Of a stretch of 64,000 bases of DNA, positions 5,201-57,080 are shown piece by piece. A model generated the notes under the pieces. That model had not been told where the DNA came from, did not search any database, and saw only the letters and a list, made by a program, of their open reading frames with translations. The DNA comes from Candidatus Doudnabacteria bacterium (GTDB taxonomy: Bacteria; Patescibacteriota; Doudnabacteria; UBA920; O2-02-FULL-48-8): contig JACPKU010000004.1 of NCBI GenBank assembly GCA_016186915.1, positions 67,168 through 131,167 on the forward strand, written 5' to 3'. Made by a program: the position numbers and the translations under genes. The first letter of the stretch is position 1; the number at the start of each line of letters is the position of its first letter.

Positions 5201-6154
5201 ATGAATCACCACAAGCTCATTATAATCGGTTCGGGGCCAGCAGGATTGACTGCGGCCTTGTACGCGGCCAGGGCAGAACTCAAGCCTTTGGTTATTGCCG
5301 GTGTCACCTTTGGCGGACAGCTGATGACCACCACTGAGGTGGAAAATTTTCCGGGTTTTCCAGACGGCAGGCAGGGACCGGAACTCATGCAAGATATGGT
5401 TAAACAGGCAGAACGATTTGGCGCCCAGATGATTTATGATGATGCCATTAAGGTTGATTTTTCCGCCAAAGGCGGATCCGCCTCGGGCGGAAAGAATCAA
5501 CCGTTCAAAGTAGCCACTGGTGATAAGGAATTTACTGCCGACTCCGTAATCATTGCCACGGGCGCCACTTACAAATGGCTAGGTTTGCCCTCGGAGACCA
5601 AATATCGAGGCAAAGGAATTTCTGCCTGCGCCACATGCGATGGGTTTTTCTTCAAGGAGAAGGAGATAATCGTGGTGGGCGGCGGGGACGCGGCCATGGA
5701 AGAGGCTTTGTATCTGACCAAGTTTGCCAGTAAGGTTGTGATTCTTAATCGTACAGGAAAGCTTCGCGCGTCAAAAATTATGCAGGATCGGGTCAAGGCC
5801 AACAGCAAGATCAGCATTGAATACAATAAGCAAGTTGAAGAGTTTTTGGGAGGAGAGAAGCTTACCGGCGGCAAGATCAAGGATAGTGTCAGCGGCCAGG
5901 CGGATGAACGAAAATTTGACGGCGCGTTTATTGCCATAGGACACAAACCAAGCTCGGATATTTTCCGAGGCCAGATTGAGCTGGATGAAAAGGGGTTTGT
6001 AATACCGAAGGATCTGACGCGCACCTCGGTGGAGGGGGTGTTTGTAGCAGGCGATGTCCAGGATCACCGCTACCGCCAAGCCGTGACTGCCGCAGGATTG
6101 GGCTGTATGGCGGCTTTGGACGCGGAGAAGTATTTAGAAATGGACCATGGATAA
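5201..6154 (+). CDS. trxB: Thioredoxin reductase
   Basis: IIGSGPAGLTAALYAAR, CATCDGFFF redox-active motif, GGGDAAMEEALYLT NADPH site, AGDVQD. Carries an in-frame palindromic-element insertion encoding KGGSASGGK at 5463-5490. Confidence 0.85.
   Translation: MNHHKLIIIGSGPAGLTAALYAARAELKPLVIAGVTFGGQLMTTTEVENFPGFPDGRQGPELMQDMVKQAERFGAQMIYDDAIKVDFSAKGGSASGGKNQPFKVATGDKEFTADSVIIATGATYKWLGLPSETKYRGKGISACATCDGFFFKEKEIIVVGGGDAAMEEALYLTKFASKVVILNRTGKLRASKIMQDRVKANSKISIEYNKQVEEFLGGEKLTGGKIKDSVSGQADERKFDGAFIAIGHKPSSDIFRGQIELDEKGFVIPKDLTRTSVEGVFVAGDVQDHRYRQAVTAAGLGCMAALDAEKYLEMDHG
5463..5490. repeat. 28-bp GGATCC-centred palindromic element (ccgccaaaggcggatccgcctcgggcgg), in frame within trxB
   Basis: Near-perfect palindrome. 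Family members at 33673, 33744, 43853 and 47351. Confidence 0.8.
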
Positions 6155-8111: not shown

Positions 8112-8181
8112 AGGTCATGGATCACGTAACACGGAACAAAAATCAGGTGTTCAATGTTCTATGATATGTGTTATGTGATTT

Positions 8182-8403
8182 TTATGTGCTGGTAAATGGG
8201 AGCAGCGCCATGTGACGCCCATGTTTGAGCGCGCGGGTTACCATTCTCTGGTGCTTACCGCAGTTGCCGGTTTTTTTGGCCGACAGAATTTTGGCATGCG
8301 GAGACATAAAGCGGCGCAAAAACTGCGTGTCTTTGTAATCCACGTAGGAAATTTTTTCACTGCAGAACAAGCAGATTTTTTTAGTTTGCTGTTGGATAGC
8401 CAT
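8182..8403 (-). CDS. rpsR: 30S ribosomal protein S18
   Basis: CLFCSEKISYVDYKD...LRRFMS...KTGNCGKHQR is the S18 motif. Confidence 0.85.
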   Translation of the reverse strand: MAIQQQTKKICLFCSEKISYVDYKDTQFLRRFMSPHAKILSAKKTGNCGKHQRMVTRALKHGRHMALLPFTST

Positions 8404-9377: not shown

Positions 9378-9504
9378 AAGGATTGAATCCTCTCGTCCTC
9401 CGAAGCTTTAGCGTAGGAGGATTTATCACCCCTCGACAATGCTTGGGGCGAATAATGAGTTAAATTTTATTGCTCGAGTAGTTTAACAAATTTGACGGTT
9501 AGGG

Positions 9505-14153: not shown

Positions 14154-14245
14154 TTTATAACCCCTCCCAGCCTCCCCTTATGTTAAGGGGACGAGATTTT
14201 TTAAACCCCCTCTTAAATAAGAGGGGGTAGGGGGAGTTAAACTTC
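14154..14245. repeat. Modular G-tract/AT-loop hairpin repeat cluster
   Basis: Modules ttataacccctcccagcc, cctccccttatgttaagggga, ccccctcttaaataagaggggg, gggggagttaaacttc. Homologous copies at 19861-19995, 28777-28863, 43513-43635. Confidence 0.6.
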
Positions 14246-16081: not shown

Positions 16082-16418
16082 TTAAGTCCTTTATTAATAA
16101 TAAAAACACACACTCATGTGTTTTTAAACCAAGAAAAATCTATGGCTTGCGAGTCTTTAAACAGGGCTAAACCGCTGGTTTTATTCCGACGCGGGATTAC
16201 CGGTCGGAACCCCGACCAATGGTCGGGGGAAGACCCAATTAACACAAAATAATCAACAAACAGCAGTTATTGGCTATTTTTTATTAACTGTATGAGTTTG
16301 TTTTTGTTTCTGCTTACTAACTTTAAGAGTATCTACATTATACACGAACCTAGGATTTTGTCAAACGGTTTTTTCATGGCCTTGCCCATACGGCCGCTAA
16401 GTTCTGTATTGACGGGTA

Positions 16419-16567
16419 CGGAGAGATTTTCCAGCCTTCGCTAAAGCTTCGGCGGATCCGCCGGAGCCTTGTGCGGAGGCGGAGAACTCTCACGGACTTG
16501 CGTCCACACGCTCCTGCCTGTCCGCCGAAATTTCGATGAAGGCGGAAAGCTGCGCGCCCCGCACTAA
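16419..16567 (-). pseudogene. tRNA-Leu-like copy interrupted by palindromic insertions
   Basis: Aligns to tRNA-Leu(CAG) T-arm, variable arm and the 3' part of the anticodon arm. Has a ~50-nt insertion in the T-loop and a ~34-nt insertion replacing the 5' anticodon stem. Both insertions contain ccgcc/ggcgg hairpins. No matching 5' acceptor strand nearby. Confidence 0.3.
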
Positions 16568-16588
16568 ATTTTGCTTAGGATCATATTC

Positions 16589-16662
16589 TGGTGCTCGAGG
16601 GGAGAGTCGAACTCCCACGGCCTTGCGGCCATACGCTCCTGAAGCGTACGTGCCCCGCACCA
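16589..16662 (-). tRNA. 3' portion of a second type-II tRNA-Leu(CAG)-like gene
   Basis: Intact TACGC-TTCAGGA-GCGTA anticodon arm, GGCC-GCAA-GGCC variable arm, GGGAG-TTCGACT-CTCCC T-arm, acceptor 3' strand CTCGAGC-A-CCA. Lacks acceptor 5' strand and D-arm. The matching GCTCGAG + D-arm lies at 16790-16854, on the far side of the intact tRNA-Leu. Confidence 0.35.
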
Positions 16663-16681
16663 AAAGAGCTTAGTTTTGTCT

Positions 16682-16768
16682 TGGTGGGCACGGAGAGATT
16701 TGAACTCTCACGGGATTGCTCCCACACGCTCCTGAAGCGTGCGCGTATACCAGTTCCGCCACGTACCC
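16682..16768 (-). tRNA. tRNA-Leu (anticodon CAG), type II, 87 nt
   Basis: Manual fold: acceptor GGGTACG/CGTGCCC, D-arm, anticodon arm CACGC-TTCAGGA-GCGTG, long variable arm GGGA-GCAA-TCCC, T-arm GAGAG-TTCAAAT-CTCTC, encoded CCA. Confidence 0.75.
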
Positions 16769-16789
16769 ATGAATCTTTGGTGCGGGGTA

Positions 16790-16854
16790 AATCTGCCAGC
16801 CTGCCCCGTACCTCCCGCCAGGGCGGGATGGTACCGGGGTTCCACCACTCGAGC
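16790..16854 (-). other. tRNA 5'-half-like segment (acceptor GCTCGAG + D-arm) followed by a ggcgg palindrome
   Basis: GCTCGAG-TG-GTGG-AACCCCGGTA-CCAT, then CCCGCCCTGGCGGG, then ...TTTACCCCGCACC. The last piece is complementary to ggtgcgggg preceding the 3' portion at 16589-16662. Confidence 0.3.
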
Positions 16855-16939
16855 ATAGAAAAGAAGATTAGTGCGGGGTAAATCTGCCAGACGCGGCTAG
16901 ATTTATAGGGTATCACTAAATTCGTTTCGCCTCAACTGC

Positions 16940-19000: not shown

Positions 19001-20959
19001 TCAAAGCTTGGCTTTTATCTTCTCTGCCAAGGAGCGGCCTACTACATTGGAAAGTTCGGTCATGTTAGCAGCTTTTAAAGCCGCGACAGAGCCAAATTTA
19101 CTGAGTAGTTGTTTTTTCTTTTGTGGTCCGATTCCGGGGATAGTGTCCAAGCTGGATAAAAGTAGGGATTGGGATCGGAGTTTGCGGTGGAAGGTTACGG
19201 CGAATCGGTGCGCTTCGTCGCGAATGCGCTGAAGGAGAAACAAAGCAATGGAATTAGGGGGAAGGGTTAAGGGTTTAGGATGCCTAGGCAGAAATATTTC
19301 CTCCAAGCGTTTGGCTAGACCAATGATAGGAATTTTTGTTTTTTTATTGTAAATTGAAAATTGAGATTTGGAAATTGCCGCGATAGCGGCGTTAAGTTGC
19401 CCGCGACCGCCGTCAATGAGGATAAGGTCAGGCAAGGGCCAGGCTTTGTTCCGTGTTCCGTGATCCGTGCCGCCTTTGGCGAGCCTCGCCTCTGGCGGGA
19501 TCCGTGACCTGGAGAATCTCCTTTCCAGCATCTCGCGCATCATAGTGTAATCGTCGGGCGTGTGTTTGCTTCGGATCTTGAATCGCCGATAATCTTGTTT
19601 TTTGGGCCGTCCGTAATCAAATACTACCATTGAGCCGACAGGATTCATCCCTTGAACATTGGAAATATCATAGGCCTCGATTCGACCGGGCAATTTGGAT
19701 AAATTAAGCACGCGTTGCAATTCTTTAAGCGAAGCAAGCAGCCTGGCTTCTTCTAGCAGATTTTTATCACCAGTGCTTTCTAAGTACTGTTTGGCGTTTT
19801 CTGTGCCGAGTTGGATGAGCTTGAGCTTCTGGCCGCGGGATGGAACGAAGATTCGCGGACGTAACTCCCCCTCACCAGCTCTCGGCAGCCGGTGAGGTAG
19901 GGAATTTCCTCTTATACTAAGAGGGGGTTTTTTTGCAGCTACACCTCCCCTTATATTAAGGGGAGGCTGGGAGGGGTTATAACCCTGGGCTGGTAATAGA
20001 ATCTCCCTCGGCCAGCTACTCGCTTCCAAATAATATTTCGGCAGAAATTCATCTAAGATTTCTGCGGGTGTTGCTCCTTTGGTGTTTTTGAGAATAAAGT
20101 TTTCTTTTCTAATCAATTTGCCTTCCCGAATGAGAAATAAATTGATCGAGCCGAGACTGCCCGTAAGATAGAGACTAAAAATATCCTGATCAACTTTTTT
20201 CGGATACACCAGTTTTTGTTTTTCTAATACTCTATTAATAGTAAAGATCTGGTCTCGGATTCGCGCCGCTTTTTCATACTGTCTGTTTCTGCTTAGTTGG
20301 CTCATTTGGGATTTTAAATCGTCGAGCGTTTTTAGCTGCCAGCCGGATAAAAGTTGGACGATCTGATCAATAGCTTTTCGATACTCCGCCAAAGAAATTT
20401 TGCCGATACAGACACCCGGACACTTGCCAATGTGATAATAAAAACATGGCTTGGTGCCAACCTTGGAATTGGAGCAATAAGGAAAAATTTTACGGATCAA
20501 ACGCAAGGTTTGTTTGATGGAATAAGAGGATGTGTAAGGGCCTAAGTAGCGCGCCGATTTACCTGCCCGCCGTAGCTTTAGCGAAGGCGGGTCGGCAATT
20601 TTGCGCTCGAAGTCTATGGTCGGGATTTCGTCCTGGATATTGATTTTTATAAACTGAAAATTTTTGTCGTCTTTCAGCATCATATTGTATTTGGGCTGGA
20701 ATTCCTTGATGAAATTGTTTTCCAAAATCAGGCTTTCGGTTTCATTGTCTGTGATCACATAGCTTAGATCCCGGATTTGGCTGATCATCTGCTGAATCCT
20801 GTTTGATCTTGCTGGGTCGGGCTGGAAATAAGAACGGACTCGGTTTTTAAGCTTGTTGGCCTTGCCCACATACAAAATATCGCCAGCGGCGTTTTTGAAA
20901 ATATAGACGCCAGGTCTGGCTGGTAGTTGTTTGGTTTTTTGAGCCATGCTTTTGCGCAT
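19001..20959 (-). CDS. uvrC: Excinuclease ABC subunit C
   Basis: N-terminal GIY-YIG (PGVYIFKN..GDILYVGKA), UvrBC-interacting region, RNase H-like domain, C-terminal HhH (IPGIGPQKKKQLLSKFGS). Carries in-frame repeat insertions (19460-19489, 19861-19995, 20566-20591). Confidence 0.85.
   Translation of the reverse strand: MRKSMAQKTKQLPARPGVYIFKNAAGDILYVGKANKLKNRVRSYFQPDPARSNRIQQMISQIRDLSYVITDNETESLILENNFIKEFQPKYNMMLKDDKNFQFIKINIQDEIPTIDFERKIADPPSLKLRRAGKSARYLGPYTSSYSIKQTLRLIRKIFPYCSNSKVGTKPCFYYHIGKCPGVCIGKISLAEYRKAIDQIVQLLSGWQLKTLDDLKSQMSQLSRNRQYEKAARIRDQIFTINRVLEKQKLVYPKKVDQDIFSLYLTGSLGSINLFLIREGKLIRKENFILKNTKGATPAEILDEFLPKYYLEASSWPREILLPAQGYNPSQPPLNIRGGVAAKKPPLSIRGNSLPHRLPRAGEGELRPRIFVPSRGQKLKLIQLGTENAKQYLESTGDKNLLEEARLLASLKELQRVLNLSKLPGRIEAYDISNVQGMNPVGSMVVFDYGRPKKQDYRRFKIRSKHTPDDYTMMREMLERRFSRSRIPPEARLAKGGTDHGTRNKAWPLPDLILIDGGRGQLNAAIAAISKSQFSIYNKKTKIPIIGLAKRLEEIFLPRHPKPLTLPPNSIALFLLQRIRDEAHRFAVTFHRKLRSQSLLLSSLDTIPGIGPQKKKQLLSKFGSVAALKAANMTELSNVVGRSLAEKIKAKL
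19460..19489. repeat. CCGCC..GGCGG palindromic element variant in frame in uvrC
   Basis: ccgcctttggcgagcctcgcctctggcgg encodes RLAKGGTDHG in UvrC. Confidence 0.6.
19861..19995. repeat. Modular G-tract hairpin repeat cluster in frame within uvrC
   Basis: cccctcaccagctctcggcagccggtgaggtaggg, cctcttatactaagaggggg, cctccccttatattaaggggagg, gggaggggttataaccc. Encodes ~45 aa (..PPLNIRGGVAAKKPPLSIRGNSLPHRLPRAGEGELRP..) without stops. Confidence 0.65.
20566..20591. repeat. CCCGCC-gtagctttagcgaa-GGCGGG hairpin element in frame in uvrC
   Basis: Encodes PPSLKLRRAG. A related loop motif, gaagctttagcg, occurs at 9399-9422 and 16436-16460. Confidence 0.55.
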
Positions 20960-21117: not shown

Positions 21118-22056
21118 ATGAAACTCATGGATTGGGATCTTTTCGGCAAGTGGACTGGCGATGATCACCGTTCGTTGATCAGCGCTCTCGGTGAGGAGAA
21201 CGCGCGAGCCGTGAAGAGCGGCCAACTCGTTCTCAAGGTCACCAAGCCGGCAACGGAAACCGAGCCGGGAGAGTTCGTGCTGGAAGAGCCGGTCAGGCCG
21301 ATGTTCGACTCACACGGCCGGCGGATTCCGCCTCAAGGCATGAAAGCCAAGGCGGTGGATGCCAACCGCTCGTTCTACCTTGACCAGCCGAAGCTCGACT
21401 TCGGATCACGGCTGGCGCGGTTCGCCGAGCACTTCGGCTGCGGCACGTTCATGTCAGCCGATGAGTTCGAAGGCCGGTTCGTCGAGATTCTGCGGTGGCT
21501 GGCTACGGATCTGCTCACGGCCAACCTACCGATCAACGGCGTTGTGTTGCCGCTGGCCCTGCCGAAAATGCAAATCGACGACCTCGGCCAGTTCACGGAA
21601 GTGAAGCTCCTGGCCGCGGTCAAGCGGGCTTATGAGCAACAGTTCCCCGGGCGGAACTTTAAGAACTACCGCGCCGGCAAACTGGCCAAGCAGGTCAAGG
21701 TCGTGGCCGATAGCCATAACCGGCTGCTGCGGAAGCTGGCCGAAGGCCCGGTCGTGCTGGGCTACTCCCCGAACTGTCTGCAGGGATTCTCCATCCCGGC
21801 AGATCGGGAACAGATGAATACGCTGCCCGATGACTTGCTGCTGTGCGGCGTCATCGAGCCGGCAGCGGCCCTGACCACTTACTCGGACGTCCTGGCGCGT
21901 GATTACCAGACCCCGGGTCTGGATTGCGCCGCAGTCCAGTGGCAGTCGCGGGAGTTCTCGCTCTACTTCAGGGCCTACGACAGTGCGCTTGAGTTCGACC
22001 ACAGGCCTCTGCCTGCCTACGGCAACTCTTCCGGCGGCTTGTCCGTCCTCGGGTAG
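21118..22056 (+). CDS. Hypothetical protein in a GC-rich islet (~60% GC)
   Basis: Strong SD (aaggaggg, then ATG). Composition sharply different from flanks. Followed by a terminator. Confidence 0.5.
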   Translation: MKLMDWDLFGKWTGDDHRSLISALGEENARAVKSGQLVLKVTKPATETEPGEFVLEEPVRPMFDSHGRRIPPQGMKAKAVDANRSFYLDQPKLDFGSRLARFAEHFGCGTFMSADEFEGRFVEILRWLATDLLTANLPINGVVLPLALPKMQIDDLGQFTEVKLLAAVKRAYEQQFPGRNFKNYRAGKLAKQVKVVADSHNRLLRKLAEGPVVLGYSPNCLQGFSIPADREQMNTLPDDLLLCGVIEPAAALTTYSDVLARDYQTPGLDCAAVQWQSREFSLYFRAYDSALEFDHRPLPAYGNSSGGLSVLG

Positions 22057-28776: not shown

Positions 28777-28863
28777 GCCCCCTCTTAGAATAAGAGGGGG
28801 ATAGGGGGAGTTAGATTCAGAGGATTATAACCCCTCCCAACCTCCCCTTATATTAAGGGGAGG
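28777..28863. repeat. Modular G-tract hairpin repeat cluster
   Basis: ccccctcttagaataagaggggg, gggggagttagattc, ttataacccctcccaacc, cctccccttatattaaggggagg. Confidence 0.6.
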
Positions 28864-28874
28864 AGAATACGAAT

Positions 28875-33428: not shown

Positions 33429-34613
33429 ATGGCTGAGGACTATTATTCAATTTTGGGTGTTGCCAAAACCGCAACCGCAGAAGAGATTAAGAAAGCTTAC
33501 AGAAAATTGGCACACAAGCATCATCCGGACAAAGGTCAAGGCGGGGATCCTGAAAAATTCAAACAGGCCAGTGAAGCTTATCAGGTTTTATCCAACGCAG
33601 AGACGCGGGGCCAGTATGACCAGTTTGGCACGACTTTCGAACAGGCTCGCAGGCAAGGTTACGGTGGTTTTTCCGCCAAAGGCGGACCAGCCTCTGGCTG
33701 GGATTTTTCTGATTTTATGCGCGGCTTCGATTTTGGCGATTTTTCCGCCGGAGGCGGATCCGCCTTTGGCGGAGAAGATGCCTTTGATATTTTTTCCGGG
33801 ATTTTTGGCGGCCAAGCTACGGGCAGACGACCGCGCAGAGCGCGGGGCGTGGATCTGGAGATGGAGCTGGATATTACTTTTGACGAGGCAGTATTTGGCG
33901 TGGCAAAAAAGATTAAGCTTGAAAAAAAAGACAAATGCTCCGCTTGCGAAGGGTCTGGAGCAAGGCCTGGGAGCAAGATTGTTACTTGTGCCAGATGTCA
34001 CGGCACCGGACAAATCCGAACGCATCGTCGAACAATTCTTGGACAAATTGCCCAAGTCAGTGTATGTGACCAATGCGATGGCAGCGGCAAGGTGGCCGAA
34101 GAAGCATGTCAGGAGTGTGACGGGAGCGGCATAGTCAGAAAAGAGAAAACACTGGAGGTGAAAATTCCGGCTGGGGTGGATAATGGTACCAGAATCAGAA
34201 TCAGCAACGAGGGCGAGGCTGGATACAAAGGGTCAAGTCCCGGCGATTTGTATTTACGGCTTAATGTGGCGCCGCATCCGGAATTCAAACGGGAAGGCCA
34301 AGATATCTATTTGGAAATTCCCATCAGTTTTTACCAGGCCGCGCTTGGCACCACCATTGAGGTGCCAACCATTGATGGCAGAGTTAGTTTGAAGATCCCG
34401 GCCGGCACGCAATCCGGCAAGGTTTTCCGGCTGAAAAATAAAGGAGTGGTAAAAGTGAACGGGTCTTCTCGCGGCGAGCAATATGTAACGGCCAATGTCG
34501 TTACCCCGGCCAAGCTTACCAAGAAAGAAAAAGAATTGTTCAAACAACTGGCAGAAGAAAACGGCGAGACTGTCGACGTGGATGAGAGTCTCTGGTCTAA
34601 ATTCACAAGCTAA
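33429..34613 (+). CDS. dnaJ: Chaperone DnaJ
   Basis: J domain (HPD: KHHPDK), G/F region, four CxxCxGxG zinc-finger repeats, C-terminal substrate-binding domain. G/F region contains two copies of the 28-bp palindromic element. Confidence 0.85.
33673..33701. repeat. 28-bp palindromic element (degenerate copy) in frame in dnaJ
   Basis: ccgccaaaggcggaccagcctctggctgg. Confidence 0.6.
33744..33771. repeat. 28-bp palindromic element in frame in dnaJ
   Basis: ccgccggaggcggatccgcctttggcgg encodes [11 protein letters not shown]. Confidence 0.8.
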
Positions 34614-42918: not shown

Positions 42919-44034
42919 ATGAATCGAGGATTTTGGGATAAGTTAACTAAACCAATAATGATTTTGGCGCCTATGGCCAATGTCACTGATTTTGCATTTC
43001 GTAAAATGATTGCGCAATACGGCAAGCCAGATGTAATGTGGACAGAGTTTGTGTCAGTTGATGGCTTGTGTTCGCCAGGCAAGGAGAGGCTGATGATTGA
43101 TTTGAAATATTCAGAAATTGAACGGCCAATTGTCGCCCAATTTTTTGGGAGCAAACCAGAAAATTTTTATAAGTGTGCTCAACTTGCACAAGAACTTAAA
43201 TTTGACGGCATAGATATCAATATGGGTTGCCCTGACAAGTCAGTGGAAAAGCAAGGCGCTGGGGCGGCACTGATGAAAAACCCAAAATTAGCTAAAGAGA
43301 TAATTTTAGCTACTCAAGAAGGTGCGGGAGAGTTGCCAGTTTCTGTCAAAACACGTCTTGGATACAACAAGATTGATTTTGAAGACTGGCTACCGACATT
43401 GTTTGAGGCCAAACCTGCAGCCGTAATTTTTCATCTGCGAACGCGCAAAGAGATGTCTAAGGTGCCGGCGCATTGGGAAGTGATGCCGGAAATAATGAGC
43501 CTTATTGGGGCTTCCCCCCTTGAAACAAGGGGGGAAAGAGGGGGGTTAGAGGCAAAGCCCTCTGATCTAACTCCCCCTACCCAGCTCTCGGCAGCTGGTG
43601 AGGTAGGGGACTTCTCTTATTCTAAGAGGGGGTTTAGCGCTCCATTGATTCTTGGCAATGGGGATGTGATGAGTTTGCAGCAAGGAATAGAAAAATGCGC
43701 GCAGACAGGTGCAGACGGCGTAATGTTTGGCAGAGGGATTTTTGGCAATCCGTGGTTGTTTAACAGAGAGATTAGGGTTGAGGGATTAGAGATTAGAGAC
43801 AAACTCAAGGTCATGATTGAGCATACCAAGCTGTTCGAAAAGACTTTTATATCCGCCAGAGGCGGACCCGCCTCTGGCGGGAAGAGCTTTGAAGTGATGA
43901 AGAAGCACTACAAAGCCTATGTCAACAATTTCGAGGGCGCGAAGGAATTGCGGGCGGAGTTGATGGAAGGAGCGTCCACAGCCCAAGACGTAGAAAGAAT
44001 AGTCAAGAATTTTTTACTTGCGGATCAAAAGTAG
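42919..44034 (+). CDS. dus: tRNA-dihydrouridine synthase
   Basis: ILAPMANVTDFAFR...IDINMGCP TIM-barrel Dus motifs. Contains a ~40-aa repeat-derived insertion (43513-43635) and a palindromic element (43853-43880). Confidence 0.8.
   Translation: MNRGFWDKLTKPIMILAPMANVTDFAFRKMIAQYGKPDVMWTEFVSVDGLCSPGKERLMIDLKYSEIERPIVAQFFGSKPENFYKCAQLAQELKFDGIDINMGCPDKSVEKQGAGAALMKNPKLAKEIILATQEGAGELPVSVKTRLGYNKIDFEDWLPTLFEAKPAAVIFHLRTRKEMSKVPAHWEVMPEIMSLIGASPLETRGERGGLEAKPSDLTPPTQLSAAGEVGDFSYSKRGFSAPLILGNGDVMSLQQGIEKCAQTGADGVMFGRGIFGNPWLFNREIRVEGLEIRDKLKVMIEHTKLFEKTFISARGGPASGGKSFEVMKKHYKAYVNNFEGAKELRAELMEGASTAQDVERIVKNFLLADQK
43513..43635. repeat. Modular G-tract hairpin repeat cluster in frame within dus
   Basis: cccccttgaaacaagggggg, ggggggttagag..ctctgatctaactcccc, ctacccagctctcggcagctggtgaggtagggg, ctcttattctaagaggggg. 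Confidence 0.65.
43853..43880. repeat. 28-bp palindromic element in frame in dus
   Basis: ccgccagaggcggacccgcctctggcgg encodes SARGGPASGGK. Confidence 0.8.
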
Positions 44035-46335: not shown

Positions 46336-48600
46336 TCATTCTTTTGTAAAATCACAATCTTTATTACTGCATTTGATAACCCCGTCTTTGGCAAAGATTA
46401 ATAGATCGCCAGACTTCGGGCATTTTTCGCCCGTGGGTTTAGTGGGCAAACTGAATTTACATTTTGGATAGCGAGAGCAGGAATAAAAGATGCCGCGCTT
46501 GCTTCTTCGCTCCACCAGCTCGCCTTCTCCGCAAACCGGGCAAGCAACGCCTGTGGTTTTTTCAATTTTTTTGATGTTCTTGCATTCCGGATAGCCGGTG
46601 CAGCCGAGGAAAGACCCGAACCGGCCAAACTTTACGGCCATGGGGCGGCCGCATTTGTCGCAAACCTCGCCTTTGTTCTCATCAATGATTTTTTGCTCCT
46701 CTGGCATGGGCCTGGTGAACTTGCATTCCGGATAGTTGGAGCAGGCAATGAATTTGCCAAACCGCCCGAATTTTATAACCAGCGGATGCCCGGAGTCTGG
46801 GCATTTTTCATCCAGGGTTTCCACGTGTTTTTCCACGGTTGTTTCTTTTTGCTTTAGGTTCTCATGAAAAGGGCTATAAAATTCTTTTATCACCGGCACC
46901 CATTGCTTGTTGCCTGCGGCAATTTCGTCCAAGCTCTCTTCCATGCCTGCGGTAAATTGGTAATCTACGATTTTGGGAAAATGCTCCACCAAAATATCAT
47001 TGACGATGAATCCCATTTCCGAAGGATGAAATTTTTTGTCAATCTTATGCACGTAGTCGCGGTCCTGGATGGTGCTGATTGTCGGCGCATAAGTGGAAGG
47101 CCGGCCAATGCCATATTCTTCCATTGTCTTAATTAAGCTTGCATCAGTGAACCTTGGGGGCGGCTGGGTAAAATGCTGTTTGGGCAAAATCTTGACCACT
47201 TTGGGTTTATCGCCTTTATTAAGTTGGGGCAATAATCCCTCTTCCTCCTCTTCGCCATTTTCTTCGTCTTTGCCTTCCAGATAGACTTTCATAAAGCCGT
47301 CAAATTTTATAATCTGCCCAGTGGAGCGGAAAATGTAAGCTTTTTCTTTCCCGCCGGAGGCGGGTCCGCCTTTGGCGGATATTTCCGTGTCCACTGAAGT
47401 TGCGTCAAACAAAGCCTCAGGCATTTGCGTGGCGATTGTTCGTTTCCAGATAAGCTCATAAAGCCGATATTGATTGCGGTCCAAATACTGTTTTATGCTT
47501 TCCGGATCCCGAGTTAGATCTGTGGGCCGGATGGCTTCGTGGGCTTCCTGGGCGTTTTTGCTTTTCGATGCGAACTGGCGCGGCCGGTCCAAAAGATAAT
47601 CCTTGCCATAACGCTGACTGATCGCAGACTTGGCTGATTGCAGGGCAAAGTCAGAAAGATTAACTGAATCAGTACGCATATAGGTAATTAAGCCCGTGGC
47701 TTCATCTTCCCCCAATTCCACGCCTTCGTAGAGTTGCTGGGCGTACATCATGGTTTGTTTGGCACTAAAGCCCAATTTACGGGCGGCTTCCTGCTGCATG
47801 GTGGAGGTGATAAAAGGCGCGGCCGGCGTTCTTTTGACTTCTTTTTTGTTGACCTCAACTACTTGGGCAGGATAGCTGGCAAGATCGGATAAAATCTTTT
47901 TGGCTTGGATCTCGTTTTTGATTGCCAGTTTGTCCAAATTTTTTCCATCAACTTTCGCAAGCTTGCCTAAGAAATTGCTGTCTTTATGGAAAGTGGCGAT
48001 AATGCTCCAGTATTCTTCAGGCTTGAATTTTTGGATTTCTTTTTCGCGTTCTACAATTAAGCGCACTGCCACTGACTGCACGCGGCCAGCGGAAAGCCCG
48101 CGTTTGACTTTTTTCCACAAGAAAGGCGAGAGTTCATAGCCGACTAATCGATCAAGCACGCGCCTTGCTTGCTGGGCATCCACCAAGTGCAGATCTAACT
48201 CACGCGGATTTTTTAAAGCCTCCTCAATCGCCGACTTAGTAATTTCGTGAAAAGCAATGCGTTTTATTTTGGGATTTGGGATTTGGGATTTGGGATTTTC
48301 CAAGCCGAGTGCTTGGATAAGGTGCCACGCGATGGCTTCGCCTTCGCGGTCTTCGTCTGTGGCGAGGATTATTTCTGGCGCGTCTTTAGCTAATTTTTTA
48401 AGCTCTGCGATTTTCTTTTTGGCTTTGGGCGGGACCAGGTAAGTCGGTTCAAAATCATGCTCAATATCAATCCCCATTTTGCTGGTGGGCAAATCGCGGA
48501 TATGGCCAAACGAGGCCTCCACCTTGTATTGACCATCCAGAAAACGCGAAATGGTTTTCGCCTTGGTGGGAGATTCAACGATGACTAAAGATTTAGGCAT
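46336..48600 (-). CDS. topA: DNA topoisomerase I
   Basis: TOPRIM N-terminus (SLVIVESPTKAKTI), catalytic region, multiple C-terminal C4 zinc ribbons. Carries an in-frame palindromic element (47351-47378) and a tandem heptamer tract (48271-48298). Confidence 0.9.
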   Translation of the reverse strand: MPKSLVIVESPTKAKTISRFLDGQYKVEASFGHIRDLPTSKMGIDIEHDFEPTYLVPPKAKKKIAELKKLAKDAPEIILATDEDREGEAIAWHLIQALGLENPKSQIPNPKIKRIAFHEITKSAIEEALKNPRELDLHLVDAQQARRVLDRLVGYELSPFLWKKVKRGLSAGRVQSVAVRLIVEREKEIQKFKPEEYWSIIATFHKDSNFLGKLAKVDGKNLDKLAIKNEIQAKKILSDLASYPAQVVEVNKKEVKRTPAAPFITSTMQQEAARKLGFSAKQTMMYAQQLYEGVELGEDEATGLITYMRTDSVNLSDFALQSAKSAISQRYGKDYLLDRPRQFASKSKNAQEAHEAIRPTDLTRDPESIKQYLDRNQYRLYELIWKRTIATQMPEALFDATSVDTEISAKGGPASGGKEKAYIFRSTGQIIKFDGFMKVYLEGKDEENGEEEEEGLLPQLNKGDKPKVVKILPKQHFTQPPPRFTDASLIKTMEEYGIGRPSTYAPTISTIQDRDYVHKIDKKFHPSEMGFIVNDILVEHFPKIVDYQFTAGMEESLDEIAAGNKQWVPVIKEFYSPFHENLKQKETTVEKHVETLDEKCPDSGHPLVIKFGRFGKFIACSNYPECKFTRPMPEEQKIIDENKGEVCDKCGRPMAVKFGRFGSFLGCTGYPECKNIKKIEKTTGVACPVCGEGELVERRSKRGIFYSCSRYPKCKFSLPTKPTGEKCPKSGDLLIFAKDGVIKCSNKDCDFTKE
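47351..47378. repeat. 28-bp palindromic element in frame in topA
   Basis: ccgccggaggcgggtccgcctttggcgg encodes [10 protein letters not shown]. Confidence 0.8.
48271..48298. repeat. Perfect tandem heptanucleotide repeat (gggattt)x4 inside topA
   Basis: Read directly. Encodes PKSQIPNPK on the coding strand. Confidence 0.85.
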
Positions 48601-48731
48601 AAATCCGAATATCTAATATCGAAATCCGAAACAATATCTAAATTCAAAGCACAAATATCTAAACGTTTTGAATTTTGTATTTTGAAATTCGAATTTGTTT
48701 CGTGCTTCGAATTTCGTGCTTCGGATTTAAC

Positions 48732-49880
48732 TTAATCATTCTTATCTAAAAGAATAACACTTGTCAAACCTAGTTTCCCTAAAATCGCCAAAGTTTCTGT
48801 TTCAGTTGCCCACCTTGGACAGCAATAATTATCAATGATTACAGGTTTTAATTCGATTTTTTTAATTTCCGGTCCAGTCATTGTCCCGCCTATCTCTGAT
48901 GGGCGAGGCTCGCCCACATTCGTGGGCGGCATCGTCATAGTTATCGTTACGGTTAAGCCTTCCCTTGTATCAATGCTCCACATTTGGTCAAATACGAAAT
49001 TGCCTAAAGAATAAAAGATCCATTTGCCTTGGTACTGTTCAATGGTCTGGATCCAATGGGGGTGGTGGCCAATGACAAGGTCAGCGCCGGCATCTATGGC
49101 ACCATGGGCAAAGTCAATTTGTTTTTGGTTCGGTTCCCTGGTATATTCAGCGCCGGCATGCATGCTGACAATTACGATATCAGCATAGTGCCCTTTTATA
49201 TCTAAAATATCTTGCCTTAGTCGATCTAAATTATTGAAGTCCGAAATTTGCGTGTGTGTGCTTCTGCCTGCCTCGCCGGCAGGCGGGCCGCCGTCGTTGT
49301 GAGCGGCGTAACTGTAGGAAAGAAAGCCAAACACAATCCCATTTTTCTCTATAATTGCTGCGGCGTGTTCAGTCGCAGGTTTTTTGGTGCCAGATGCTTG
49401 GATATTGTATTGATTCAAAAGATCAATAGTGTATTCTAGGCTTTCAATGCCATAATCCAAGGAATGATTGTTAGCAGTTGAGAGCACGTCAAAGCCAGCA
49501 AACGATAATCCACGTGCTACGTCTGGATGTGCGCCAAATACCAAGCCTTGCCTGGCTCGGATAGCATTTTGTGCAAACTGGGACTCTAAATTAGCAAACG
49601 CGATATCAGCTTGCTGGACCTGCGAGGCAACATTTAGGAACGGCAGATTAGGGTTATTGGCTTTCAAGATTTCTTGGTCCACGTTGCGCGAGAGCATAAT
49701 GTCGCCGGCGAAAAACAGGGTGGTAGGTTTTGACGGTGCGATCTGGTTAAATGTCTGCTGGATTTCGGGACTAGTTTGTTGTGGCCTTGATACAATGACG
49801 ATAACGATGACAATGACCGCTGCAATCAAAATTCCAGAAAATGTTTTTAATATTTTTGTTCGGTCAATAGTCATTGTCAT
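48732..49880 (-). CDS. CapA/PgsA-family metallophosphatase-like protein
   Basis: N-terminal TM. CapA motifs (FANLESQF, LSTANNHSLDYG, GHHPH). Confidence 0.7.
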   Translation of the reverse strand: MTMTIDRTKILKTFSGILIAAVIVIVIVIVSRPQQTSPEIQQTFNQIAPSKPTTLFFAGDIMLSRNVDQEILKANNPNLPFLNVASQVQQADIAFANLESQFAQNAIRARQGLVFGAHPDVARGLSFAGFDVLSTANNHSLDYGIESLEYTIDLLNQYNIQASGTKKPATEHAAAIIEKNGIVFGFLSYSYAAHNDGGPPAGEAGRSTHTQISDFNNLDRLRQDILDIKGHYADIVIVSMHAGAEYTREPNQKQIDFAHGAIDAGADLVIGHHPHWIQTIEQYQGKWIFYSLGNFVFDQMWSIDTREGLTVTITMTMPPTNVGEPRPSEIGGTMTGPEIKKIELKPVIIDNYCCPRWATETETLAILGKLGLTSVILLDKND

Positions 49881-53189: not shown

Positions 53190-53768
53190 TCATCCATTGA
53201 ACCTTGATTGTGCTGCTTCCAGCCCTTCTGTTTGGAGCACTTCCAAAGCCTCCAACGCCTTGCTTAACATTTCTTTCACTATCGGGTTTTCGTCGTCAGT
53301 GAAATTTTTTAGTACATATTCATCTCCAGGAATTGACATATAACCGTCTGAGGTAGGTCGTCTTCTGGTTTTAGGGTTGCTAACCCCCAGTCTCACCCGA
53401 ATAAAATCCTGTGTGCCTAATTCGTCTATAATGTTCTGCACGCCGTTATGCCCGGCCGCGGAAATGCCTTTTTGAACACGAATAGATCCTAATAGTAAAT
53501 CAAGATCATCGTGCACGATAATCATTTCTGCGGCTGGATAATATTTCAGGATTTGTTTTACCGCCTTGCCAGAGTTGTTCATAAACGTCTGGGGTTTTAC
53601 CAAAATAATGTCATTGAGCTTTAAAAACAAACTATCGTATTTTCCTTCCCAGCCGCCTTCGCCGAGGCTCCGGCGCCCGGCCAACAAATCTAAAACCTTA
53701 AATCCGAGATTGTGTCGAGTAAGTTCGTATTTTTTGCCTGGATTGCCGAGACCGATTATAATTGTCAT
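53190..53768 (-). CDS. pth: Peptidyl-tRNA hydrolase
   Basis: IIGLGNPG..Y..TRHNLGF...HDDLD...GHNG. Confidence 0.85.
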   Translation of the reverse strand: MTIIIGLGNPGKKYELTRHNLGFKVLDLLAGRRSLGEGGWEGKYDSLFLKLNDIILVKPQTFMNNSGKAVKQILKYYPAAEMIIVHDDLDLLLGSIRVQKGISAAGHNGVQNIIDELGTQDFIRVRLGVSNPKTRRRPTSDGYMSIPGDEYVLKNFTDDENPIVKEMLSKALEALEVLQTEGLEAAQSRFNG

Positions 53769-55081
53769 ATTCGTTTGTGATACCTAATTATTATAGGGCT
53801 GCCTTCAAAGCCGAAGCGCAAACGGAACTGTTTTTCCAGTAAATTTTTCCAAGCCGGAGCAAACGCATTAGGGAAATTTACCGCAAGCTCGAAGATTGGC
53901 GGGTTGGTCCTTATTTGGGTGAGGCCATAAATTTTTGGGGCGCGCTGGTCATCCATTTTGCCGGGGAAATTTTCGTTGAGAAGTTTACCTAAGAAACCGT
54001 CCAGTTCTTCTTGTGGGATTTGGACCAAAGCTTTTTCCACCACCTCTTGGACTAATTGTAGCATTTTTTTCAACCCTTCTTGAGTTTTAGCGGAGACGTA
54101 GACTACTGGCGCAAACCAAAGCTTGGGAAGATAGTGGGGCAGTTTGTCTAGAAATTTTTCCCTTTCAGTTGCCGCCAGCATATCAATTTTGTTCAAAAGC
54201 ACCAGAACTTTTTTATTTGATTCCAAAATTTTAGTGGCGATAGCCTGGTCCTGAATGGTAATTTCCGCGGCGGCGTCGAGGACGAACAGCACCACATCAA
54301 CCCGGGCCAAGGTATTGATCGACTGCATGGCTGCGGCAGCTGAAACATCATCATCACTCTTCCATTTTTTCTTTATCCCAGCAGTATCAAGCAGGAGAAA
54401 CTTTTGGTCATCAAATTGAAAAGGAATTTCCACCGTGGATCTGGTTGTCCCGGGTTTATTGTCAACCAAAAGCCGTTCTTGTTTGATCAGGGCGTTGACT
54501 AAAGATGACTTGCCGACGTTCGGCTTGCCGATAAACGCAATTTTTAACCGAAGGTCACCTTCGTCAACGAAGGTGACCTTCGGAAATTTAGTAACCACTG
54601 CGTCCAACAAATCGCCCATGCCCGAGCCGTTGGCAGAAGAAATGAGAAAGGGCCTGCCCAAGCCTAACTTTTGGAAGTTGCGGGCGATGACTTCCGATTT
54701 CTGATTGCGAACATCGATCTTGTTGACTGCTAAGACTTTTGGTTTTTTGGCCCGGTTAAGCTGGGCGGCCACTGCCAAATCTTTGGCTGAAACCTGTGAC
54801 TTGCCGTCAACCATCAAAAGAATTAGATCCGCCTCTTCGATGGCAATCGCTGTTTGTTTCTGGACATTTTTTTCCAGTTCAGAGTCTGGTTTGTTGTTGA
54901 TTCCTGCTGTATCAATCAAATAAAAATCAAACCCATTCCAGGAAGTCAGGCCGTAATGCCGGTCCCTGGTAGTGCCCTCTTCGGGGAAAGTCAGGGCTTT
55001 GTAGGTTCTGAGGACCTTGTTAAAAAAAGTTGATTTGCCGCTGTTGGGAAGACCCACAATCGCGACTAAAGGGGTGTTCAT
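53765..55081 (-). CDS. der: GTPase Der (EngA)
   Basis: Two G domains (GLPNSGKSTFFN, GKPNVGKSSLVN) plus KH-like C-terminus. Start set at MNTPLVAIVG. Confidence 0.85.
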   Translation of the reverse strand: MNTPLVAIVGLPNSGKSTFFNKVLRTYKALTFPEEGTTRDRHYGLTSWNGFDFYLIDTAGINNKPDSELEKNVQKQTAIAIEEADLILLMVDGKSQVSAKDLAVAAQLNRAKKPKVLAVNKIDVRNQKSEVIARNFQKLGLGRPFLISSANGSGMGDLLDAVVTKFPKVTFVDEGDLRLKIAFIGKPNVGKSSLVNALIKQERLLVDNKPGTTRSTVEIPFQFDDQKFLLLDTAGIKKKWKSDDDVSAAAAMQSINTLARVDVVLFVLDAAAEITIQDQAIATKILESNKKVLVLLNKIDMLAATEREKFLDKLPHYLPKLWFAPVVYVSAKTQEGLKKMLQLVQEVVEKALVQIPQEELDGFLGKLLNENFPGKMDDQRAPKIYGLTQIRTNPPIFELAVNFPNAFAPAWKNLLEKQFRLRFGFEGSPIIIRYHKRI

Positions 55082-55156
55082 AAGTTTAGAATATAGAATG
55101 TAGAATATAGAATGTAGAGTTATGCCATATTCCACATTCGACATTCCACATGCTGA

Positions 55157-56659: not shown

Positions 56660-56697
56660 GGGCGATTAGCTCAGCGGTTAGAGCGCTGCATTTTCAC
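56660..56697 (+). tRNA. tRNA 5' half A (acceptor-D arm-anticodon stem/loop, anticodon UUC)
   Basis: GGGCGAT-TA-GCTC-AGCGGTTA-GAGC-G-CTGCA-TTTTCAC. Its acceptor complements 3' half Y (ATTGCCC). Confidence 0.45.
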
Positions 56698-56788
56698 TCC
56701 GTTAGATTTTCTCGGACGGTTAGCTCACCCCGACGCTTTACCGGTCGGGATCCCGATATCGCAATGCGATTGTCGGGATTGGTTTTCT

Positions 56789-56825
56789 GGGCGGTTAGCT
56801 CAGCGGTAGAGCATTGCATTTTTAC
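56789..56825 (+). tRNA. tRNA 5' half B (anticodon UUU)
   Basis: GGGCGGT-TA-GCTC-AGCGGTA-GAGC-A-TTGCA-TTTTTAC. Its acceptor is the perfect complement of 3' half X (ACCGCCC). Confidence 0.45.
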
Positions 56826-56841
56826 CCCGTTAGATTTTCTT

Positions 56842-56918
56842 GGACGGTTAGCTCAGTTGGTTAGAGCGCGCCGTTCACATCGGCGAGGTCACTGGTTCGA
56901 GTCCAGTACCGTCCACCA
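56842..56918 (+). tRNA. tRNA-Val (anticodon CAC), 77 nt
   Basis: GGACGGT-TA-GCTC-AGTTGGTTA-GAGC-G-CGCCG-TTCACAT-CGGCG-AGGTC-ACTGG-TTCGAGT-CCAGT-ACCGTCC-A-CCA. Confidence 0.8.
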
Positions 56919-56949
56919 GGAAAATCTAAAAATCTAACGGGGCAGGCAT

Positions 56950-56987
56950 TGCAGGGGCCACAGGTTCGAATCCTGTACCGCCCACCA
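56950..56987 (+). tRNA. tRNA 3' half X (anticodon stem 3' strand, variable loop, T-arm, acceptor, CCA)
   Basis: TGCAG-GGGCC-ACAGG-TTCGAAT-CCTGT-ACCGCCC-A-CCA. Pairs with 5' half B. Confidence 0.45.
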
Positions 56988-57021
56988 GTAAAAAGCACTC
57001 AAAATCTAACGGGGCAGGCAT

Positions 57022-57059
57022 TGCAGAAGTCGGCGGTTCGAATCCACCATTGCCCACCA
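57022..57059 (+). tRNA. tRNA 3' half Y
   Basis: TGCAG-AAGTC-GGCGG-TTCGAAT-CCACC-ATTGCCC-A-CCA. Pairs with 5' half A (one G-U). Confidence 0.45.
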
Positions 57060-57080
57060 TTAAGAAACTAATATATTACC

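Follow-up and report, generated by a model that had tools for sequence, protein, structure and literature searches.

How does a gene for an essential enzyme come to carry segments of dispersed repeat DNA and still keep its reading frame open? The question is raised by uvrC in a stretch of 64,000 nucleotides (nt; hereafter the window) from Candidatus Doudnabacteria bacterium, a metagenome-assembled genome (MAG) of the Patescibacteria or Candidate Phyla Radiation (CPR) (assembly GCA_016186915.1, contig JACPKU010000004.1, positions 67,168 to 131,167). The UvrC protein encoded in the window has extra residues, missing from most orthologs, at three sites that are probably loops, and four repeat modules altogether account for them. 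The repeat families of these inserts recur in the window intergenically and inside dus, trxB, topA and dnaJ. The preferred explanation, to which a probability of roughly 80% is assigned, is that small non-autonomous hairpin repeats of at least three families invaded uvrC at three surface loops.

Three insertion sites in uvrC

Insertions were delimited by alignment with 23, and then 114, UvrC orthologs and by codon-level DNA comparison to three related loci (L001, L002 and L004). All four modules keep the frame of uvrC and are stop-free, the host open reading frame (ORF) is intact, and the segments are lacking in orthologs. Insertion 1 (20561..20590, minus strand) comprises 30 nt encoding PPSLKLRRAG (residues 124-133). 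It is absent from 22 of 23 close orthologs and, compared with the three related loci, sits precisely between codons gac and aaa, at a position between the GIY-YIG domain and the Cys-rich region. Its hairpin (20566-20591, minus strand), CCCGCC-ttcgctaaagctac-GGCGGG, has a 6-bp GC stem.

Insertion 2 (19862..19979, minus strand) is an element of 118 nt (39 codons plus 1 nt) with inverted ends and three internal hairpins; it begins at the third base of a Tyr codon and extends to a Leu codon. The encoded peptide is NPSQPPLNIRGGVAAKKPPLSIRGNSLPHRLPRAGEGEL (NPSQPPL...GEL), at about residues 327-365, a site at which the native linkers of UvrC orthologs measure about 8 to 17 residues. The ends of the element, TAACCCCTCCC (19969-19979) and GGGGGAGTTA (19862-19871), are imperfect terminal inverted repeats. 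Between them on the minus strand lie module h1 (19944..19966, CCTCCCCTTA-TAT-TAAGGGGAGG), module h2 with one arm decayed (19906..19926, CCCCTCTTAGTATAAGAGGAA), and a third hairpin module (19872..19905, CCTCACCGGCTGCCGAGAGCTGGTGAGG), which is common to a dus element at 43568-43614 (47 nt, 89% identity).

Insertion 3 (19445..19498, minus strand) comprises 54 nt, or 18 codons (PPEARLAKGGTDHGTRNK), and consists of two adjoining modules on that strand. Module 3a (19470..19498) is a degenerate double hairpin, CCGCCAGAGGCGA-GGC-TCGCCAAAGGCGG, encoding PPEARLAKGG, and module 3b (19445..19469) is the heptamer-rich (C)ACGGATCACGGAACACGGAACAAA, encoding TDHGTRNK. The T. maritima UvrC structure 2nrt has nothing corresponding to query residues 489-506 at this site. 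Junction-spanning peptides expected from the inserts are IADPPSLK, QGYNPSQPPLNIR and GGTDHGTR.

A first-pass annotation of this DNA had proposed repeat-derived in-frame insertions at three sites of an open 652-residue uvrC. The proposal is borne out by the ortholog alignments, in which the three segments are absent from most UvrC proteins, and by matches of each segment to dispersed repeats; ortholog segments of equal length without repeat DNA were not seen. The count of three stands for the sites and not for the repeat units, of which there are four. The hairpin given for site 1 was correct, the segment lacking in orthologs being the one delimited above. The block described at site 2 is indeed repeat DNA, although its extent of about 135 bp (19861-19995) has to be reduced to the 118-nt element, and the bounds given for the insertion at site 3 (19460-19489) cut across modules 3a and 3b.

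Copies of the repeats within the window

The window holds about 3.5 times as many GC-rich perfect hairpins as Markov shuffles do (87 versus 17-30). Modules of the site-2 family were matched at three places on the plus strand, with 0.00-0.02 matches expected by chance: a full-length intergenic copy of 82 nt between trpS and the RNase J gene (14158..14239), two partial copies, right half and then left half, between hrcA and grpE (28778..28866), and a copy inside the dus ORF (43568..43635). Module h1 has three window copies (14171, 19944 and 28841; 0.00 expected), and h2 has copies at 19906, 28779 and 43611 (0.02 expected). Module 3a is a one base longer, compensatorily mutated form of a 28-30-nt double hairpin (CCGCCnnnGGCGG twice; 0 expected by chance), and four canonical 28-nt double hairpins are present in other window ORFs (5463, 33745, 43853 and 47351). 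Module 3b has an intergenic copy upstream of efp (8116..8140, plus strand; 25 nt, 92%; 2 matches, 0 expected) and corresponds to one of the two arms of the intergenic palindrome located there (about 8116-8185).

On window data alone, site 1 is the weakest repeat case. Its 12-mer core has 3 window matches versus 0.5 expected, and 3 were reached by 1 of 100 shuffles. The two motif copies named in the first-pass annotation are real: one lies on the plus strand inside a degenerate tRNA-Leu-like repeat (16431..16455; 92% over 25 nt), and the other (9404-9415, 1 mismatch) falls within an intergenic hairpin variant, CCTCCGAAGCTTTAGCGTAGGAGG (9399..9422, plus strand; fold z = -3.4). The repeat status of site 1 is settled by a metagenome scan for its core, which yielded at least 120 stretches. 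In the first 127 matches listed, the uvrC 24-mer CCGCCTTCGCTAAAGCTACGGCGG recurs unchanged 14 times, and the outer stem covaries (CCGCC/GGCGG, CCTCC/GGAGG, CCACC/GGTGG).

Site-1-type hairpins often adjoin tRNA genes in metagenomes (L148, L160, L171, L172). In the tRNA-Leu region of the window (16380-16920), a good tRNA-Leu(CAG) gene at 16682-16768 is accompanied by a degenerate copy at 16592-16669, which scores 26.8 bits, below threshold, and has a mismatched acceptor stem. A third fragment at 16484-16516 is preceded by hairpin repeats (16431-16470), and a 23-nt direct repeat occurs at 16777 and 16868. Other repeats surround tRNA-Val(CAC) at 56842-56918, in the region 56679-57066: uncalled tRNA-like repeats at 56926-56994 and 56998-57066 (80% alike), and a pair at 56679-56727 and 56807-56855 (90% alike). 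The gap between topA and a capA-like gene holds a 130-nt imperfect palindrome (48600-48729) with 65-nt arms, 72% complementary and without a spacer.

Insertions in other housekeeping genes

In-frame repeat insertion is not peculiar to uvrC, since dus, trxB, topA and dnaJ are also affected. The double hairpin lies inside trxB (5463, insertion 5456-5491), the G/F region of dnaJ (33673 and 33745, insertions 33666-33701 and 33738-33773), dus (43853, insertion 43846-43881) and topA (47351, insertion 47344-47379). It is invariably read as SAxGG(S/P)AxGG, though all three frames are stop-free in either orientation. Compared with solved homologs, thioredoxin reductase (trxB) has an 11-residue insertion, and Dus has an insertion of about 46 residues (region 43490-43640), of which the site-2 copy is part, and a smaller one. 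The Pfam Dus match is split into two stretches, and query residues 191-246 are nearly without counterpart in 1vhn.

Other window ORFs contain hairpins as well. A perfect palindrome with a 16-bp stem, ccgaaggtcaccttcg TCAA cgaaggtgaccttcgg, lies at 54548-54583 (36 nt, 12 codons) inside a der/engA-like ORF (53765-55144) and is probably a further in-frame hairpin insertion. GC hairpins in the capA-like ORF (49266-49284) and in pth (53648-53675) encode GGPPAGEAGRS and RRSLGEGGW, respectively; they are possible extra insertions of 'LPAGRQA'-type families, which UvrC orthologs also show.

Recurrence at the same sites across Doudnabacteria

An alignment of 115 UvrC sequences showed that insertions of at least 5 residues cluster at three positions, in 16, about 31 and 35 sequences, respectively. 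At rarer insertion sites the peptides are recognisable as those of the same repeats, e.g. AKQSQ...EIAS...RND. The occupants of the loops differ among relatives. At site 2, where window uvrC has the 118-nt TAAC...GTTA element with three hairpins, L002 carries an element of the same family and orientation (126 nt) with different inner hairpins, L004 an inverted one (67 nt) with other internal modules, and L001 an unrelated palindrome. The CCCGCC...GGCGGG hairpin of site 1 has no counterpart in L002 or L004, and at the identical codon boundary L001 has a different hairpin, ACCTGCCT...AGGCAGGT. At site 3, occupied in the window by 3a and 3b, L002 has another hairpin, L004 a tandem repeat, (ATCGGGA)x3, and L001 AT-rich low-complexity sequence with no hairpin. 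Heptanucleotide tandems thus occur at the same uvrC loop in two genomes, (ATCGGGA)x3 at L004:11330-11360 and (CACGGAA)x2 at window positions 19445-19466.

Because the same loops hold different elements and orientations across Doudnabacteria, the comparison points to repeated, relatively recent insertion at the three UvrC loops and not to one ancient event. Findings in L004 lead to the same suggestion: its uvrC and ychF copies have 38 identical nt in common, the host genes are about 61% identical (protein) to those of the window, and in YchF about 12 native residues have given way to the element peptide, replacement being shown there only.

The site-2 family across phyla

A scan for the left end plus hairpin h2, with one genome per species, returned at least 119 genomic stretches. 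Among the matches listed, the family is found in Geobacteraceae/Desulfuromonadales, Nitrospirota/Thermodesulfovibrionia, other Deltaproteobacteria, KSB1, Syntrophorhabdus and several Patescibacteria (Doudna-, Uhr-, Zambryski- and Saccharibacteria). The canonical element measures about 81 nt, TAACCCCTCCC-nn-CCTCCCCTTAnnnTAAGGGGAGG-spacer-CCCCCTCTTAnnnTAAGAGGGGG-n-GGGGGGAGTTA, with conserved ends and stems and a variable spacer and loops. Its terminal inverted repeats, TAACyCCyCC...GGrGGrGTTA, are paired at 14158/14230 and 19862/19970 and also in L002 and L004. The intergenic window copy (14158-14239) has 82-87% full-length identity to Desulfuromonadaceae and Geobacteraceae copies.

The location of the copies differs between groups. 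Among the matches listed (loci L006-L085), 9 of the 13 copies from Patescibacteria lie in long ORFs, compared with 8 of the 76 from other phyla (Fisher p = 2e-5). Host genes include aminoacyl-tRNA synthetases and a TatD-like DNase, as judged by eye from the flanking peptides. A rule that element length follows a fixed remainder modulo three was rejected, the in-ORF lengths being 118, 126, 67, 61, 84 and 83. Phage as a vector was also considered; viral contigs gave 6 and 13 matches, mostly on GC-rich contigs or outside long ORFs, and provided no evidence for it.

Association with a DUF559 nuclease

When all ORFs of the listed site-2 loci were clustered, a single non-trivial family recurred, with proteins of about 125 residues assigned to DUF559 (PF04480, E = 9e-36), a Vsr-like PD-(D/E)XK nuclease. 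At 5 of 6 loci among the matches listed, a whole element stands within 100 nt on either side of the gene. Six further independent loci, reached from four close homologs, have element modules on both sides in 4 cases and on one side only in L273 and L279; they include the cultured isolate Geotalea uraniireducens (CP000698.1, L264:1340-1960), whose strain Rf4 has the DUF559 gene at 4777109-4777486, and a Nitrospira contig. The element-DUF559-element arrangement is present in L264, L118, L009, L080, L081, L084, L265, L269 and L274. The right end of the element, ...GGGGGAGTTATG, runs into the DUF559 start codon or stops 9-60 nt short of it, and the TAAC of the next element stands at, or just before, the DUF559 stop; the gene sits between two whole elements and not inside one. 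About 2000 proteins belong to the subfamily at E<=1e-10, with cross-phylum identity of 70-86%, and many of them are encoded on very short contigs, as is typical of multicopy mobile genes. At L009:2700-3450, four tandem 220-nt units each consist of a 91-nt element and a DUF559 5'-end remnant fused to an hsdS-like 3' end, which suggests repeated recombination at the element.

DUF559 is the only recurrent neighbour, and no parent insertion sequence with matching ends was found in the window or the 119 loci listed by the scan. Transposases of the Y1 type, including those associated with repetitive extragenic palindromic sequences (REPs; REP-associated tyrosine transposases, RAYTs), were rejected as mobilisers of these families, the Y1 gene of L004 having a different flanking hairpin and the window having no homolog. 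That gene (L004:16270-16980) is IS200-like (PF01797), with the RNase J gene on one side and trpS on the other, and has perfect flanking hairpins of its own, CAAGGGGAGTCCTTG. The arrangement in this Doudnabacteria relative is RAYT-like, and the syntenic spot of the window holds the 82-nt element.

A broader proposal is put forward tentatively, with more doubt than confidence. The double hairpin of about 81 nt (TAACCCCTCCC-h1-h2-GGGGGGAGTTA) and the highly conserved DUF559 nuclease gene may form an undescribed cross-phylum partnership, similar to REP/RAYT but based on another enzyme, that moves horizontally among subsurface Desulfuromonadota, Nitrospirota and Patescibacteria; in gene-dense Patescibacteria the element would persist mainly inside genes, time and again writing loops of the NSPxPPLxLRGG type into housekeeping proteins.

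Host protein, reading frame and predicted structure

The uvrC gene (19001..20959, minus strand) was assigned from its domains and the deposited protein, and its maximal ORF of 652 residues is open throughout. The deposited protein (P0001, named excinuclease ABC subunit C, Candidatus Doudnabacteria bacterium) is 100% identical to window UvrC. Because it has 648 residues, the start codon is probably the second ATG, at 20947. The domain set is complete (Pfam, E 1e-7 to 1e-51), with a GIY-YIG nuclease (residues 16-92), a UVR motif (212-239), two RNase H-like domains (PF22920 at 257-325 and the PF08459 endonuclease domain at 415-588) and a C-terminal (HhH)2 (603-651), and solved UvrC fragments in the PDB match the protein at E = 1e-45 to 1e-17. 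Residues Y19, Y30, R40, E80, N92, D431, D516 and H584 are among those invariant in 24 UvrC orthologs; judging from the T. maritima structures, we take them to be the GIY-YIG catalytic tyrosines, Arg, Glu and Asn and the C-terminal nuclease Asp, Asp and His. Since catalytic-type residues are invariant, uvrC looks functional.

UvrC lengths in Doudnabacteria are 580-656 residues, many proteins having about 589-599. Relatives keep the gene order uvrA, small ORF, uvrC, secG, solute-binding protein, RNase J and trpS. In the window, an ORF of 312 residues (21118-22056) divergent from uvrC has no Pfam match and a local G+C of 0.51 versus about 0.46; in relatives, only an ORF of 135-168 residues with no assigned function lies between uvrA and uvrC.

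Fold energies relative to shuffles were z = -5.8 for site 2 and z = -3.0 for site 3 (3a plus 3b, a nested hairpin). Five of the six frames of the 118-nt element contain stops, and the open one is in phase with uvrC. Among the matches listed in other genomes, 16 of 17 in-ORF copies of the site-2 family read NSPxPPLxLRGG or the opposite-strand SPSPPLxLRGG, the exception being L006. Such frame use appears to be the signature of a selective filter on translated sequence, which would not be expected if the segments were removed from the RNA or bypassed by the ribosome. Neither Pfam nor Rfam showed an intein or intron signature for the uvrC inserts, and Rfam searches of the whole window at the gathering threshold and of 19400-20650 at a permissive threshold returned only tRNAs and noise.

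An AlphaFold2 model of window UvrC had a mean predicted local distance difference test (pLDDT) of 71.7, with a shallow alignment. At site 2 the model has a coil with pLDDT<50 (330-364) that follows strand 319-321 and precedes strand 369-371 in the first RNase H-like domain. At site 3 it has a short helix and low-confidence coil (489-503), with pLDDT<50 at 495-503; helix 470-485 comes before it and strand 512-516 after it, in the endonuclease domain. Both sites are thus predicted to be loops inside the two RNase H-like domains and not interdomain linkers, the location that the first-pass annotation had named as one to check.

Origin of the insertions

If hairpin repeats invaded uvrC as proposed, a factor acting in trans would copy elements into new sites, and the intragenic survivors would be only those copies that restore a multiple of three, in stop-free phase, in loops tolerating extra residues. 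Being palindromes of G and C tracts, the elements could encode Pro/Gly/Leu/Arg-rich or Ser/Ala/Gly-rich peptides (PPLxLRGG, SAxGGSAxGG) in either orientation. The inserted peptides would be translated and would extrude as flexible loops, UvrC staying functional, and the insertions would most likely be passengers, neutral or slightly deleterious, that bring no new function. The best candidate for an enzyme that mobilises or maintains the site-2 family would be the DUF559 nuclease, in parallel to REP-RAYT systems. This is the weakest step of the scheme.

Several observations weigh against this interpretation. The fold of site 1, with its 6-bp GC stem, is no better than shuffles (z = -1.1), and the site lies within a region (95-190) that AlphaFold2 predicted poorly as a whole. 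That the inserts are translated we infer from the open frame alone. The site-1 hairpins of L001 and the window differ at the same codon boundary, so one old event followed by turnover is possible. The paired contigs L004/L005 and L002/L003 are 100% identical and hence give no presence/absence polymorphism data, and the window protein is on a single contig. Neither a transposase nor a DUF559 or Y1 transposase gene was found in the 64-kb window or in 13 Patescibacteria loci, and because no DUF559 homolog was found there, a role for this nuclease in the window organism is conjecture. No target-site duplication was detected, 23 complete site-2 copies having no shared or duplicated flanking bases outside TAAC/GTTA. 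In-ORF lengths are not uniformly 0 or 1 modulo three, and with the replacement in L004 YchF, templated break repair or gene conversion fits them as well.

The last of these points lead to an explanation without transposition, in which gene conversion, templated double-strand-break repair or template switching copied the repeats in as filler DNA. Consistent with it are the missing duplications, the replaced YchF residues, a window without transposase, and modules that are shuffled (the halves at 28778-28866, the extra third hairpin in uvrC, and the inner hairpins of L002 versus L004). However, copies from different phyla keep the full 81-nt architecture and the stems at 82-87% identity, with variation in loops and spacers, a pattern that argues for sequence-specific recognition by a conserved factor, and the tight, phased DUF559 association suggests a dedicated partner; we regard repair-based copying as unlikely. 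Retention of the inserts as useful parts, i.e. flexible, positively charged loops altering UvrB/DNA interactions or regulatory mRNA hairpins, would agree with the repeated hits at the same three Doudnabacteria UvrC loops, the single frame always used by the double hairpin among its three open ones, and the preferentially intragenic Patescibacteria copies. Structural permissiveness accounts equally for the recurrence, however, and the peptides at one loop vary in family, length and orientation between orthologs, many of which have none; the same peptides occur in unrelated enzymes, and the UvrC segments are predicted to be disordered. Usefulness accordingly appears rather improbable.

Two remaining explanations concern whether the segments belong to a working protein at all. 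In Magnusiomyces mitochondria, 'byp' elements are passed over by ribosomal bypassing, and the stable hairpins of uvrC resemble bypass elements in this respect; bypassing, RNA-level excision or protein splicing could remove the segments before the mature protein is formed. The four modules are nevertheless in frame and stop-free, the sole open frame of the 118-nt element is the one used, nearly all listed in-ORF copies elsewhere follow the PPLxLRGG frame or its opposite-strand equivalent, and Pfam and Rfam gave no intein or intron signature, so that removal would be very surprising. Short repeats can confuse assemblers, and the genome is a MAG, which leaves misassembly, or a uvrC that is a decaying pseudogene, to be weighed. 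Against these stand the frame preserved through four modules, intact catalytic-type residues, equivalent insertions in independently assembled NCBI, Logan, JGI and ENA contigs (100% agreement), and the presence of the element family in the complete genome of a cultured isolate; an artefact has next to no likelihood.

Implications

If invasion by hairpin repeats is the correct explanation, part of CPR protein length variation and of lineage-specific loops would be owed to selfish hairpin DNA and not to adaptation, with consequences for CPR annotation, alignment, phylogenomics and structure prediction. Recurrent insertions would provide a natural map of where UvrC and other essential enzymes tolerate added residues. 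A testable lead to the function of DUF559, a large domain of unknown function, and to a new repeat-nuclease partnership comes from the spread across phyla together with the DUF559 link, Geotalea uraniireducens being culturable. If the partnership is real, near-identical shared elements could mark physical or host associations of CPR cells with those phyla, and shared elements might trace the exchange of genes by CPR bacteria with neighbours or hosts.

Comparison with known systems

The closest parallel is the Rickettsia palindromic elements (RPEs), in-frame palindromic repeats in housekeeping genes (Ogata et al. 2000, via PMC10969869). As described in that account, RPEs are likewise dispersed palindromes of reduced genomes, found intergenically and in frame inside unrelated housekeeping genes, with an added peptide thought to be compatible with the fold. 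The uvrC repeats have the corresponding features, namely a dispersed family (intergenic; in dus, trxB, topA, dnaJ, L004 ychF and enzymes elsewhere), hairpin folds and in-frame, stop-free insertion. In contrast, the RPEs of the same account belong to Rickettsia, are restricted to that genus and measure about 100-150 bp, whereas the repeats here occur in Patescibacteria and other phyla with no taxonomic overlap, consist of modules of 25-118 nt with G/C-tract hairpins, and include at least two families in several phyla, one with DUF559 as candidate partner nuclease. The uvrC repeats are therefore best regarded as a putative analogue of RPEs and not a member, set apart by taxon, length and composition.

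REP sequences, their paired forms (REPINs) and RAYTs (Bertels and Rainey 2011, PMC3116915; PMC3733652) resemble the site-2 family in being short, GC-rich, abundant, non-autonomous hairpins that flank a small single-copy-type gene, and the 81-nt element, as two related halves in inverted orientation, is REPIN-like. However, REPs are extragenic with GTAG/CGTC tags, whereas the elements here begin with TAAC, end with GTTA and are often intragenic, and the gene that they flank encodes a PD-(D/E)XK nuclease of DUF559 in place of a Y1 transposase. No Y1_Tnp homolog was found in the window, and the elements have no GTAG tag. The looser pattern of a repeat with a cognate gene is seen at the DUF559 loci, none of which are Patescibacteria. 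For Geobacter, intragenic multicopy nucleotide sequences without frameshift have been described (Aklujkar et al., PMC2996986, section 21; PMC2700814), and G. metallireducens has a heptanucleotide-repeat family inside genes (PMC2700814). The same organisms bear the site-2 family, and the heptanucleotide repeats in uvrC recall theirs; the site-2 motifs were absent from the G. bemidjiensis supplements, and those descriptions draw no Patescibacteria or DUF559 link.

Miniature inverted-repeat transposable elements are also small, non-coding by themselves and occasionally fused in frame to host ORFs, and share terminal inverted repeats with the site-2 family only; the modules of sites 1 and 3 have none beyond the hairpin. 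They differ further in that neither target-site duplications nor a parent insertion sequence sharing the ends was found for the repeats here. The mobile GC clusters of yeast mitochondria are GC-rich palindromes of a compact genome that lie in frame in var1 and are translated, but they are organellar and of other sequence families.

No description of these repeats for CPR, nor of DUF559 with repeats, was found in the open-access literature. RPE-like insertions in a single gene would be nothing new in kind. What this case adds is that such insertions are pervasive in a CPR lineage, that the same loops are hit repeatedly, that the families are common to unrelated subsurface phyla, and that one of them has a previously undescribed association with DUF559.

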